DNA from: an uncultured Clostridia bacterium | GTDB taxonomy: Bacteria > Bacillota > Clostridia > Christensenellales > UBA1242 | Reading direction: 5' to 3' | NCBI GenBank assembly: GCA_944384375.1 | Contig: CALWTE010000015.1 | Location: 2,237 to 66,236 of the forward strand | DNA length: 64,000 bases | In this document: positions 6,111 to 9,371 of the stretch, one piece after another | Position numbering within the stretch: the stretch's first letter is position 1 | Layout of the letters: each line of letters opens with the position of its first letter | Position numbers and translations under genes: made by a program | The notes under the pieces: generated by a model | What the model saw: only the letters and a program-made list of their open reading frames with translations | Databases searched by the model: none | Told to the model about the DNA's origin: nothing

Positions 6111-6632
6111 TTATGCTGTAGTTTCTGCGTTGTCATCTGTTGGGAGTGGGGTACCATTTAAGGTATAAATTACGTACATTTGATAGTATGTAGATTCGCT
6201 ATCTGGAGTATTATTTCTAATATCTTCGGTACTTTTTAAAGGGCCGAAATTAAAATATAATACATTGCCATCAAAATAACCATCAGTCCAGAATTCACCT
6301 TTATAAGTAAACTCAACCTTGCCTTCGCTGTCAATCGTATATGCATCTACGAAAGACACTTCTACTGAAGAAGATTCAGGAGAAGAGTGGGTAACTGTAC
6401 CATCACTGTTTAATGTTAAATCAGCGGTCCATTTAACAGACACAGGTAAAGTATCTTCAACTCCATAATTAGTTACTTCGTCTGTAGTAGTATTTATTAA
6501 ACGATACCCTACAATCTTATATGTACCATATTCAATCTCGTATGATTCCCCACACGCTGTAAGCAACATTGCTATAGGTATTATTAGCAAAATTGCCAGC
6601 ATCCCAAAACCAAACGTTTTAACTTTTTCCAT
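6111..6632 (-). CDS. Lipoprotein of unknown function (lipocalin-like beta fold possible)
   Basis: Signal peptide with lipobox LTAC-G; GTYKIVGY segment; acidic Ser/Thr-rich mature part. Confidence 0.7.
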   Translation of the reverse strand: MEKVKTFGFGMLAILLIIPIAMLLTACGESYEIEYGTYKIVGYRLINTTTDEVTNYGVEDTLPVSVKWTADLTLNSDGTVTHSSPESSSVEVSFVDAYTIDSEGKVEFTYKGEFWTDGYFDGNVLYFNFGPLKSTEDIRNNTPDSESTYYQMYVIYTLNGTPLPTDDNAETTA

Positions 6633-6658: not shown

Positions 6659-7459
6659 TTACGCTTCTACATAAGAATCTAAGTCGCTAGGTGCTTTTAC
6701 TTCTTCATCAGAAACAGCAAGTTGTATGTCATATGTTACATTAGCAGTCTCATTATTAGGTCCTGTAGGCATTTCACCTTGTGCTTTAAATGCTATACCA
6801 CGGAAGTTGTCTTCACCATCAAAAATGATATACATTTCTAATTGAGTAACACCTTCTGGCTTTTCATTTAGAGTTACTTTAATTTTTTGAGCATTACGTT
6901 CTTCAGCGAAACCTACTATCATGTTGTCACTGCCAGAATCTCCTATGCCACCAAACATGTCCATAATCAATTCAGGACTCATACTTGAAGCTGCTCCTAA
7001 TGCGCCACTAGGGTCATCATTAAGTGAGGTGACTTTTGTCTTTGTACCATTGTTGTTTAGGTATGCTTCAACAGTACCTGCGCTTGTAATTTCAATGTAC
7101 ATTGAGCCGTCGTAGTTTTGGTCAAACTCTTCGCCGTTTACGTAGGCTTCAATCATCATCTTCATACCAGTTACTTCAGTACCTTCCATAGTTGCTTGAG
7201 CATGACCAGTTATTTCCATTTTGTTACCGCCAACTTCAAGCATGTATTTCATTTCATAGCCTGTAGGCACATCCATAGTATCTAAAGAATTCATTAATTG
7301 ATAAGCTTTAGATTCTTGCAAGTTATCAGCAGATATTTCTTCATAGCTTCCGCCTAAGTCAATCAAGTCTTGATTGCCACAAGCAGCAAACAAAGGAAGG
7401 CAAAGAACAACTAATAAAGCAGGAACAATGAACAAGCCTATTCTTAAACTTTTTGTCAT
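6659..7459 (-). CDS. Lipoprotein of unknown function
   Basis: Signal peptide with lipobox FAAC-G; RBS AGGAG; acidic beta-rich mature part. Confidence 0.75.
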   Translation of the reverse strand: MTKSLRIGLFIVPALLVVLCLPLFAACGNQDLIDLGGSYEEISADNLQESKAYQLMNSLDTMDVPTGYEMKYMLEVGGNKMEITGHAQATMEGTEVTGMKMMIEAYVNGEEFDQNYDGSMYIEITSAGTVEAYLNNNGTKTKVTSLNDDPSGALGAASSMSPELIMDMFGGIGDSGSDNMIVGFAEERNAQKIKVTLNEKPEGVTQLEMYIIFDGEDNFRGIAFKAQGEMPTGPNNETANVTYDIQLAVSDEEVKAPSDLDSYVEA

Positions 7460-7603
7460 AGTTTACTCCTTAAAAAATTTTTTTGGACTCCTATTTAATT
7501 AACTAATTACAAAATATTACTATTTTGCAGGTGGTTTTATCAGTTAACTAAACAGAATGGTATTACAAATTGCCTTTTAGCAATATTATAATTGAATTTA
7601 AGA

Positions 7604-8052
7604 GTACAATCTAATTTTGTATTTCGCTTTCGCTCAGTACAAACGATTGCACTTCCGTACAATCTAGTATTGCACCCTTTTTTTGATTAGGGTACAATCT
7701 AATTTTGTCCCCTCCCGTTGTTGGGTACAAACGATTGTCCTAGTACAATCTGTACTTTTCTTTACTAAAGTACAAACGATTGTCCTAGGGTACAATCTAA
7801 TTTTGCATTTCGCTTTCGCTCAGTACAAACGATTGCACTAGAGTACAATCTAATTTTGTACCTTTTTTAGTGTAAGGTACAAACGATTGTACCAGTACAA
7901 TCTAAAGATTGTCCTTTCTATTATATAGAGTACAATCTAATTTTGTCCCCTCCCGTTGGTGGGTACAAACGATTGTCCTAAGTACAATCTAATTTTGTAC
8001 TCCTTTGGGTCGGAGTACAATAGATTGCACTCAGTACAATCTAATTTTGTAC
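7604..8052. repeat. Array of 17 GTACAA-based palindromic boxes with alternating variable 14-16 nt and 2-4 nt spacers
   Basis: Box A GTACAATCTAATTTTGTAC (variants at 7604, 7692, 7743 shortened, 7790, 7843, 7930, 7982, 8034), box B GTACAAACGATTGYMC (7637, 7725, 7770, 7823, 7877, 7963, 8015 variant), hybrid boxes at 7657 and 7895. Confidence 0.95.
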
Positions 8053-8185
8053 AATTTTGAGAAAATTGTCAAGCGAATTAGTGTAATTAAATACACTAAT
8101 AGTGAAGTAATTTGGGGAAATAACGCAAGTATTATTAAAATATGACAAAAAATACAAAAAAGTAACCTAAAATTATTAAATTTGT

Positions 8186-8215
8186 TTGACAGTTTTTGTA
8201 AATTTAGAGTAAAAT
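8186..8215 (+). promoter_or_regulatory. Sigma-A-like promoter for the hypothetical-radC operon
   Basis: TTGACA-18 nt-TAAAAT, 25 bp upstream of the ORF at 8241. Confidence 0.6.
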
Positions 8216-8240: not shown

Positions 8241-8609
8241 GTGATAAATATGATTTTAGAAAATCCTTTAAGAAATAGAAATCTAAAAGATAAAAATGAT
8301 AACTTTGCGACAGATTTAGATGACAAAATTTACAAATATTTGGTAGACAACTTTTTCTATAACTTAGGCTTTAATTATATAGCGCAAGATAACCTAAATT
8401 ATTTAGTAGATTCTCTAAAGGCACACAGGGCGGCGTTCTATTCGGTAGGTTATTATGATTTAGTGGAGGAAATGAATTATTTTCTTGATATTTTAGTGGA
8501 ATATTTACCAAACATAGATTTGAAGAATAAATATCAGCATAAAGAGCAATTTTATAAAGAACCTAGCCTGAATTTTAAAGAAAAATTTTTAGCAGGAATA
8601 GAAAGTTAG
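8241..8609 (+). CDS. Hypothetical protein
   Basis: 122-aa ORF 9 bp upstream of radC; no motif recognised; start uncertain (GTG 8241 or ATG 8250). Confidence 0.6.
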   Translation: MINMILENPLRNRNLKDKNDNFATDLDDKIYKYLVDNFFYNLGFNYIAQDNLNYLVDSLKAHRAAFYSVGYYDLVEEMNYFLDILVEYLPNIDLKNKYQHKEQFYKEPSLNFKEKFLAGIES

Positions 8610-8618
8610 GGTGCTTTT

Positions 8619-9371
8619 ATGCGGAAAGATGCAAAAAATCATTTAGGGCATTTTGAACGTATCCGAAAGAAAATAATCACAGGGAATCCTTACGATTACG
8701 AAGAAATTGATGTAGTTGAAATGCTTTTACAAGGTGTTTTTGTAAGAGCAGATACTAATGAAATTGCAAGATTTTTGCTTGCAAAATATAGGACTTTTCA
8801 AAATCTTTACGAAAAGGCAACAGAGCAAGAATTGTTAAAAATTCCAGGTTTTGGGTTAACCAGTGCTAGAAAATTGCTGGCTTTATTAAAATTGTTTAAA
8901 TATGCTAGACTCGCTCCTAGTGCTGTTACTATATCTACAAACAAAGAAAATTTCAATGACTTAGTAAAACACGTTCGCAATCAATTTGAGTTTGTTGAAA
9001 AAGAATGTTTTGTGGTTTTGGTATTGAATAGGCAACACGAAGTTATTGAAACAAAACTTGTAGCAGTAGGTGATACAAATCACGTTGTGCCTGATTTAAA
9101 TGAGATAGTAGAACTGGCTCACACCTTTAAAAGTACAAACCTAATCTTTGCACATAATCATTTAAATTCTAGTTTTTATCCATCTACCGAAGACATAGAA
9201 TTCACGTCTCGGGCAATAGTACATTTGCGTAAGAATGGCATAGATTTATTAGACCATTTAATTATAACTAATGTTGGTTATTTTAGTTTTTCGGCATCAC
9301 ACTTAATGAACAGAATAATTGCTCGCCTTAAAAATCCCGCTCTGCGCAATATGAAATGGGACGGAAATTAA
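8619..9371 (+). CDS. radC: RadC / JAB-domain protein
   Basis: N-terminal HLGHFERIRKK, helix-hairpin-helix KIPGFG, intact JAB motif AHNHLNSSFYPSTED and LLDHLII. Confidence 0.9.
   Translation: MRKDAKNHLGHFERIRKKIITGNPYDYEEIDVVEMLLQGVFVRADTNEIARFLLAKYRTFQNLYEKATEQELLKIPGFGLTSARKLLALLKLFKYARLAPSAVTISTNKENFNDLVKHVRNQFEFVEKECFVVLVLNRQHEVIETKLVAVGDTNHVVPDLNEIVELAHTFKSTNLIFAHNHLNSSFYPSTEDIEFTSRAIVHLRKNGIDLLDHLIITNVGYFSFSASHLMNRIIARLKNPALRNMKWDGN

Follow-up and report, generated by a model that had tools for sequence, protein, structure and literature searches.

Within a 790-bp gap separating two divergent transcription units, the window (the whole 64,000-nucleotide stretch of DNA that was analysed) carries an array of about 450 bases, at positions 7604-8052, in which recurring boxes are separated by short spacers of differing sequence. 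The question raised by this locus is whether the spacers owe their complementary ends to selection on a folded single strand, to a site for a protein bound to duplex DNA, or to the mutational process that built the repeat. An initial annotation had favoured the first, proposing that the spacer ends co-vary to extend a hairpin by two to three pairs, that a folded RNA or extruded DNA is under selection, and that the loops are the variable and possibly recognition-bearing part.

The array is non-coding: its sole open reading frame spans 52 aa, the unit lengths are not divisible by three, and no tRNA or tmRNA was found at the locus. Cutting the sequence at each GTACAA yields 18 boxes, all of them on the plus strand and in one orientation. 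Two types of box alternate. The A box (GTACAATCTAATTTTGTNN, 19 nt) is followed by a spacer of 13-16 nt, and the B box (GTACAAACGATTGYMC, 16 nt) by a linker of 2-4 nt; their dyad forms are GTACAA-N7-TTGYMC and GTACAA-N4-TTGYMC, respectively. Since the reverse complement of the B box is an A box with a shorter centre, each A-spacer-B module is one interrupted palindrome, in which a 4x1 internal loop separates an outer stem of 8 bp from an inner stem of 7 bp, and a box-spacer-box module can fold on one strand as an interrupted hairpin of 15-18 bp. The A and B motifs are each matched 9 times in the window against about one match expected, a count that none of 100 shuffles equalled. Some boxes depart from these types: the A box at 7743-7755 is truncated, the box at 7895-7914 is a self-complementary hybrid, and that at 8015-8030, termed B', matches the inverted A box better than B does. 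The units, the neighbouring features, and the strain alleles discussed below are collected in Table 1.

Table 1. Units of the array, neighbouring features, and strain alleles (positions are those of the window unless a contig is named; S denotes a spacer).
Feature	Position or source	Strand	Description
266-aa lipoprotein	6659..7459	-	left neighbour; then a second lipoprotein at 6111-6632
Candidate -10 element TATAAT	7587..7592	+	11 nt ahead of first box; direct sequence reading
Unit 1	7604..7652	+	A box, spacer S1 7623-7636 TTCGCTTTCGCTCA, B box; opens every allele seen
Variant A box GTACAATCTAGTATTGCAC and spacer S2	7657..7691	+	S2 7676-7691, ends CCT..AGG; next box is A, not B
Unit 3	7692..7740	+	A box, spacer S3 7711-7724, ends CC..GG, B box
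Unit 4	7743..7785	+	truncated A GTACAATCTGTAC, spacer S4 7756-7769, ends TTT..AAA, B box
Unit 5	7790..7838	+	near-copy of unit 1; spacer S1 again, 7809-7822
Unit 6	7843..7892	+	A box, spacer S6 7862-7876, ends CTT..AAG, B box
Hybrid A/B box and spacer S7	7895..7929	+	self-complementary box 7895-7914; S7 7915-7929 TTTCTATTATATAGA
Unit 8	7930..7978	+	near-copy of unit 3; spacer S3' 7949-7962, ends CC..GG
Unit 9	7982..8030	+	A box, spacer S9 8001-8014, ends TCC..GGA, B' box GTACAATAGATTGCAC
Terminal A box and palindrome	8034..8070	+	A box 8034-8052, overlapping palindrome ACAATTTTGAGAAAATTGT 8051-8069; same in all alleles
Promoter-like TTGACA-17-CAAAAT	8044..8072	-	10/12 match; far edge of array, faces lipoprotein genes; conserved in all alleles
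Promoter-like TTGACA-18-TAAAAT	8186..8215	+	11/12 match, strong; for 119-aa/RadC operon, downstream of array
119-aa protein and RadC-like JAB protein	8250..9371	+	right neighbours; operon
Reference allele	ENA contigs, three samples: L090/L092, L095, L096		9 spacers: S1, S2, S3, S4, S1, S6, S7, S3', S9
Allele L091	one assembly		reference with 186-bp deletion; unit 1 joined to unit 5
Allele L093	one assembly		9 spacers: S1, S6, S9', S7, S1, S9', S7, S3', S1
Allele L098	one assembly		5 spacers: S1, S2', S9', S7', S9'
Allele L099	one assembly		7 spacers, one new: AATTCCCTTACGGGA
Allele L103 = L107	two different projects		2 spacers: S1, S4'
Alleles L105, L106	two assemblies, partial		further ending
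TCAATTT heptamer family	C9:1-112, C38:7117-7234, C17:4960-5340		outside the window

All spacers quoted in the initial annotation were found where it had placed them, and the additional end pairs that it described are real and far above chance (P below 1e-4). One spacer, S7, had been omitted from its list; the ends of S7 pair as T-A, T.G, and T-A, and its interior holds a further 5-bp hairpin, TCTAT/ATAGA. For counting, one representative was taken from each of 8 independent spacer families, of which the window supplied 7 and another strain the eighth, the spacer was defined as the sequence beyond the 6-nt left arm, and contiguous Watson-Crick pairs were counted inward from the ends. The families gave 1, 3, 2, 3, 3, 1, 3, and 0 pairs, a sum of 16 behind which stand few independent events, the units being paralogues within one species. 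Shuffling within spacers gave a mean sum of 2.8 and reached 16 in none of 100,000 trials. Because pyrimidines make up almost all of the 5' ends and purines the 3' ends, more pairing is to be expected by chance; a control that allows for this, re-pairing the 5' and 3' ends between families, gave a mean sum of 4.4 and reached 16 in none of 14,833 derangements.

The pairs were also followed in an alignment of 14 distinct stem-junction sequences, for which the homologous arrays available were strain alleles of one species only. Two-sided changes, of the UA/CG types, were seen at the three extension pairs in 5, 3, and 2 sequences, all of them contributed by paralogues of that single species. The covariation score was 0.267 versus 0.153 in shuffles, none of 500 shuffles equalling it, and 85% of cells were paired in the proposed register compared with at most 56% in registers slid by 1-3 columns. 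Minimum-energy folds of single units contain the extension pairs on both strands. The terminal 2-3 nt of otherwise unrelated spacers lengthen the inner stem, and what stays unpaired is a pyrimidine-rich loop of 8-12 nt. In unit 6, both arms of which are perfect, the fold reaches -18 kcal/mol on either strand. On the minus strand, spacer S1 reads GCGAAAGC (7623-7636 and 7809-7822), a GAAA tetraloop closed by C-G; this motif is known as an unusually stable mini-hairpin of DNA and RNA.

The core arms behave differently from the junctions. GTACAA is invariant in 18/18 boxes of the window and in every box of every allele, and its partner arm, in 16 copies, reads TTGTCC (6), TTGTAC (4), TTGCAC (4), TTGTAT (1), or TTGCAT (1). 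Core arm pairs at alignment columns 5-21 and 6-20 are unpaired in 3/14 and 5/14 sequences, with no compensating change. An invariant GTACAA facing uncompensated variants of its partner means that sequence is constrained besides pairing, and on one side of the dyad only. Of the proposal that selection acts on a folded single strand, the spacer-specific complementarity in the proposed register thus stands; selection itself is unproven, and the core arms, being uncompensated, contradict selection on structure alone. That a folded single strand matters is nonetheless a reasonable view.

The loop interiors are strongly asymmetric, with 37 T versus 7 A on the plus strand (P = 5e-6) and 51 pyrimidines versus 18 purines, which fits either a strand-specific role or a strand-specific exposure. 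Neither loops nor spacers match the rest of their own genome beyond chance, so that nothing indicates recognition by the loops, and the suggestion that they bear it found no support. Wobble pairs and whole-array folds single out neither one strand nor RNA over DNA: there are 5 G.U cells on the plus strand and 3 C/A cells that become G.U on the minus strand, favouring neither, and the array folded as RNA gives -158.6 kcal/mol (z = -10.4) on the plus strand and -181.4 kcal/mol (z = -14.6) on the minus strand.

To gather alleles of the array, public assemblies were searched for proteins identical to those encoded on its flanks, which led to contigs of the same species from several samples. At least 6 alleles were obtained, with 2, 5, 7, 8, or 9 spacers that come in different orders from one small pool, between flanks that are 95-99% identical; with unit number depending on the strain and the flanks conserved, the locus is a variable-number tandem repeat. 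The reference allele recurs in three independent assemblies and the short allele in two, so these are not assembly artefacts. Every allele begins with the S1 unit, ends with the same terminal A box and palindrome, and has identical edges, and spacer orientation is kept throughout. Since one and the same spacer adjoins at least 5 different B-box 3' ends and linkers, crossovers would fall inside identical box cores, and recombination there would be the route by which units are re-ordered. No further allele was found when GltX, a variant RadC, and the second lipoprotein served as search anchors. A contig of 983 bp (L100; ENA ERZ28613772 scaffold_274293, 1-330) carries the same 119-aa gene at 98% nucleotide identity with a GTPase-like gene 132 bp upstream of it, and has neither array nor lipoprotein. 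Its homology to the window starts at the -10 region, and it may come from a rearranged strain or be a chimera.

Five spacers occur in two variants each (S2/S2', S3/S3', S4/S4', S7/S7', and S9/S9'), and in all five pairs the three terminal positions on each side are kept. The substitutions are confined to the loop interiors (S3 and S3', for instance, differ in a single loop base), and one variant drops a T from its 5' T-run with no pair lost. Although the numbers are small, these constant junctions are the single line of evidence that looks like purifying selection on the junction pairs. Junction pairs that stay constant while loops vary between strains are what a single-strand hairpin predicts and a duplex binding site does not.

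Selection need not have created the pairs, however. Template switching during replication of quasi-palindromes generates complementary ends at a single stroke; it is documented to produce changes that look compensatory and to create and maintain hairpin stems (PMC8794818). Because it makes pairs of this kind, selection is not their sole source. The array might accordingly be a hairpin-prone repeat that has no function, or only an incidental one: a palindrome amplified by slippage and unequal crossing-over, with spacer ends and hybrid boxes left by template switching, and with T-rich loops left by deamination of the strand exposed as lagging-strand template. The cumulative GC skew rises across the window, which makes the plus strand the leading-strand sequence and the lagging-strand template, so template switching together with lagging-strand exposure could, in the absence of any function, account for the complementary spacer ends as well as for the T-rich loops. 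Such an origin would also agree with the confinement of the array to one species, with the wide variation of unit number and order between strains that draw on one small spacer pool, with the uncompensated arm mismatches, and with multi-base changes, exemplified by the B' box and the hybrid at 7895-7914, that raise palindromy all at once. It is at odds with the treatment of the two arms, which drift and concerted evolution should affect alike, whereas GTACAA is invariant in all alleles and its partner variable. The borders and the first and last units are moreover fixed in all alleles, the junction pairs are unchanged in the five strain-variant spacer pairs, and a 450-bp insert has been retained in a streamlined 1.18-Mb genome. 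On balance we regard a repeat of this neutral kind as somewhat unlikely.

The array is single-copy in its 1.18-Mb, 34% G+C genome. All A and B boxes lie at C15:9840-10290, other matches being chance ones with 1-2 mismatches, and the dyad GTACAA-N(0-16)-TTGTAC occurs elsewhere in the genome only once, with N12. The array was absent from 60 relatives in a DNA search and from 400 genomes of the order in a box-linker-box pattern search. Species-representative genomes and viral contigs gave isolated chance matches only and no array, JGI metagenome contigs gave 0 matches, and plasmid and phage collections did not match it. A scan of its own genome for similar non-coding arrays, based on local k-mer enrichment, turned up nothing beyond coding repeats, a pair of CRISPR arrays, and a heptamer repeat. 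The heptamer, TCAATTT, runs at two contig ends, and short copies of it flank modules of about 100 nt on a third contig; it is a separate family, which probably breaks the assembly. The array is thus a single-locus, species-specific, strain-variable mosaic of hairpin modules.

The genes within about 5 kb of the array encode lipoproteins, CMD, SIMPL, LOR, the 119-aa protein, RadC, and GltX. The 119-aa, 231-aa, and lipoprotein products gave no Pfam, NCBIfam, or PHROG match, and no DNA-binding family was recognised among the products of the flanking genes. No homologue of the 266-aa lipoprotein was found in 16 other species of the genus; its gene, which lies next to the array, is only about 95% identical between strains at the nucleotide level, a faster divergence than that of the right flank (97.5-99%; alleles L098 and L103), and the product may be a variable surface protein. 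The 119-aa/RadC operon is present in 11/16 genomes of other species of the genus (loci L078-L088). The 119-aa protein has 165 aa in relatives; the context upstream of the operon differs among them, and tRNA genes frequently lie close by. G004, the only relative examined in detail, has a 146-bp intergenic region without the array upstream of the operon.

These surroundings bear on the possibility that the boxes are sites on duplex DNA, namely dyad operators, iterons, or centromere-like sites at which a protein coats the divergent promoter region. The array does sit between divergent genes and their promoter-like sites, spacing is fixed within boxes and variable in spacers and linkers, box centres are conserved, and, as in many operators, a perfect half-site is combined with a relaxed one in each box. 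Binding of this kind predicts neither complementary spacer ends nor strand-asymmetric loops, though, and the box positions keep no constant helical phase along the array. The absence of any GTACAA-N4/N7-TTGTAC site outside the array speaks against an operator of the regulon type, LacI-family helix-turn-helix domains and CodY, whose operators the boxes resemble, are missing from the genome, and flanking products of no recognised DNA-binding family supply no candidate binder. The 119-aa and RadC genes, furthermore, occur in sister species and are array-free in G004. We therefore consider a duplex-binding array improbable.

Extrusion of cruciforms from supercoiled DNA would place the function in DNA as well, with palindromes between divergent promoters absorbing negative supercoils and the junction pairs lowering the cost of extrusion. 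The location of the array in AT-rich DNA between divergent transcription units would suit this, as would per-unit folding that is about equal on both strands and wobble pairs that show no strand preference. By established cruciform energetics, however, mismatched arms and the 8-12 nt left unpaired at the centre add heavily to the cost of extrusion, and a structure symmetric between the two strands leaves the strong T-over-A bias of the loops unexplained. This possibility appears very improbable to us.

Promoter-like signals were found at both edges of the array. The candidate -10 element TATAAT ahead of the first box is kept in L103/L107 despite several nearby changes and gains an upstream TG there (TGTTATAAT), while the same site read on the minus strand becomes TATAAC in these alleles; its being kept on one strand and altered on the other favours rightward transcription from about 3-4 nt before the first GTACAA. 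A consensus promoter scan gave a weaker, overlapping match near TATAAT at 7562-7589, and the -35 element of the plus-strand candidate is poor. Transcription from the minus-strand promoter-like site at the far edge would give the lipoprotein operon a long leader consisting of the array. A scan for intrinsic terminators found none with a convincing T run after the array on either strand. Two further palindromes lie just past the far edge and are conserved in all alleles: AATTTTGAGAAAATT at 8053-8067, a 14/15 match to the CodY box, and TTAGTGTA-ATTAAA-TACACTAA at 8078-8099.

The explanation that we prefer, at a probability of roughly 40%, is that the array is a mosaic tandem repeat prone to hairpin formation and that the conserved -10 element probably drives its transcription into tandem stem-loops. 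Transcription would most likely run rightward from TATAAT, judging from the sequence, so that the RNA would begin as a chain of 2-9 stem-loops heading to the 119-aa/RadC operon; alternatively, it could run leftward from the far-edge TTGACA-17-CAAAAT, as a leader of the lipoprotein genes. The stem-loops might function in cis, controlling from the 5' end, for example, how stable the transcript is or how it is processed, and unit number might tune the effect. The invariant GUACAA could be a sequence-specific contact or a processing point. Junction pairing would be kept by purifying selection, having perhaps been created first by template-switch replication errors. Such a transcribed chain would account for the junction pairs and their constancy between strains, for the asymmetry of the strands, and for the presence of a conserved -10 element where the array starts. 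Counting against it are the lack of a terminator, the poor -35 element, the absence of an Rfam match, the absence of the array from sister species, and the range of 2-9 spacers between strains, by which no particular unit is needed, as well as the uncompensated core-arm mismatches and wobble pairs that single out no strand.

A bolder version of the transcribed chain would make the array a new strain-variable regulatory RNA, in which GUACAA stems are read by a protein or nuclease and loops resembling the anti-Shine-Dalgarno sequence titrate or target ribosome-binding sites or a protein, the repertoire being reshuffled between strains. Several pyrimidine-rich loops do have this resemblance (CCUCCC, CUCCUUU, and UCCUUUCU). 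We consider this version quite doubtful.

Several known systems share features with the array, which belongs to the known class of intergenic palindromic and tandem repeats and is a curiosity within it rather than a new system. Like REP/BIME elements of enterobacteria and REPIN doublets of Pseudomonas, it consists of intergenic, alternating imperfect palindromes in a mosaic with short linkers, where two inverted copies form one long hairpin whose stem is kept and whose loop varies. REP and REPIN elements, by contrast, exist in tens to hundreds of scattered copies together with a RAYT (Y1 transposase) gene, and the array occupies one locus; with its copies not dispersed and PF01797 (Y1) unmatched in the 93%-complete genome (control genomes were positive), this identity was rejected. 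Pneumococcal BOX and Neisseria NIME/dRS3 elements are likewise modular, strain-variable intergenic hairpins with a variable number of modules, and are often near surface-protein genes; BOX and NIME are, however, dispersed multi-copy families of unrelated sequence, and the array is confined to a single locus in a single species. Mycobacterial MIRU loci resemble it in their intergenic units of 40-100 bp, strain-variable copy number, and near-identical flanks, but MIRU units are direct repeats, whereas the array is made of inverted-repeat hairpins with heterogeneous units that are also re-ordered.

Another likeness that was considered and rejected is that to integron attC sites, in which, too, an asymmetric unpaired region sits between an outer and an inner pair of inverted repeats and a variable loop forms the cap; these sites are recognised as a folded single strand and conserve structure more than sequence. 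Here the arms are GTACAA/TTGTAC and not RYYYAAC/GTTRRRY, the period is 45-53 bp, and there are no ORFs or gene cassettes; a family scan of nine products of genes lying within about 5 kb recognised no recombinase or integrase. The layout can also be read as CRISPR-like, with a 38-nt repeat (B box, linker, A box), spacers of 14-16 nt, and content that varies between strains. CRISPR arrays are defined by direct repeats of 23-47 nt and unique spacers of at least about 21 nt. At 13-16 nt the spacers of the array fall below that length, the same ones recur within alleles as well as between them, and none has a match; no Cas family was found among the same nine products. The true CRISPR arrays of the genome are on another contig and have other repeats: that at C16:6700-7230 has a 36-nt repeat ending ATACTAAAAC, and that at C16:14040-14800 a 33-nt repeat, GTTTCAATTCACTCACCCCGCGTGGGGGTGAGAC.

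Among RNA systems, CsrB/RsmZ sponges and ToxI of type III toxin-antitoxin pairs are the nearest, being tandem stem-loops from one promoter with a unit number that depends on the relative, although transcription of the array is inferred. Unlike them, the array has heterogeneous units and no shared loop motif such as GGA, and its downstream 119-aa gene occurs array-free in G004 and in contig L100. Rfam 15 returned only PhrS, outside the array, at 16.9 bits versus a gathering score of 37. Two operator identities were rejected as well: a LacI/GalR operator, suggested by the central CG of the B box, with PF00356 unmatched in the genome and positive in 9 control genomes, and the CodY box at 8053-8067, with PF08222 unmatched in the genome. 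The GTAC core is not avoided in the genome (observed/expected 0.98), and an interpretation as a restriction site was dropped. Other 4-base palindromes are avoided genome-wide (observed/expected: GATC 0.03, TCGA 0.07, CCGG 0.10, AGCT 0.23, GGCC 0.31, and CATG 0.34), which suggests pressure from several restriction systems.

With no conserved counterpart outside the species, the general importance of the array is limited. To our knowledge, almost nothing is known of regulation in these uncultured Clostridia. If the junction pairs are kept by selection, the array would be a compact natural case of structure conserved without sequence in a fast-evolving repeat, and a candidate cis-regulatory RNA in this group. 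If instead the pairs come from template switching, it would be a clean bacterial example of a mutation process that builds and maintains hairpins. Either way, the locus offers a ready-made strain-typing marker for the species.
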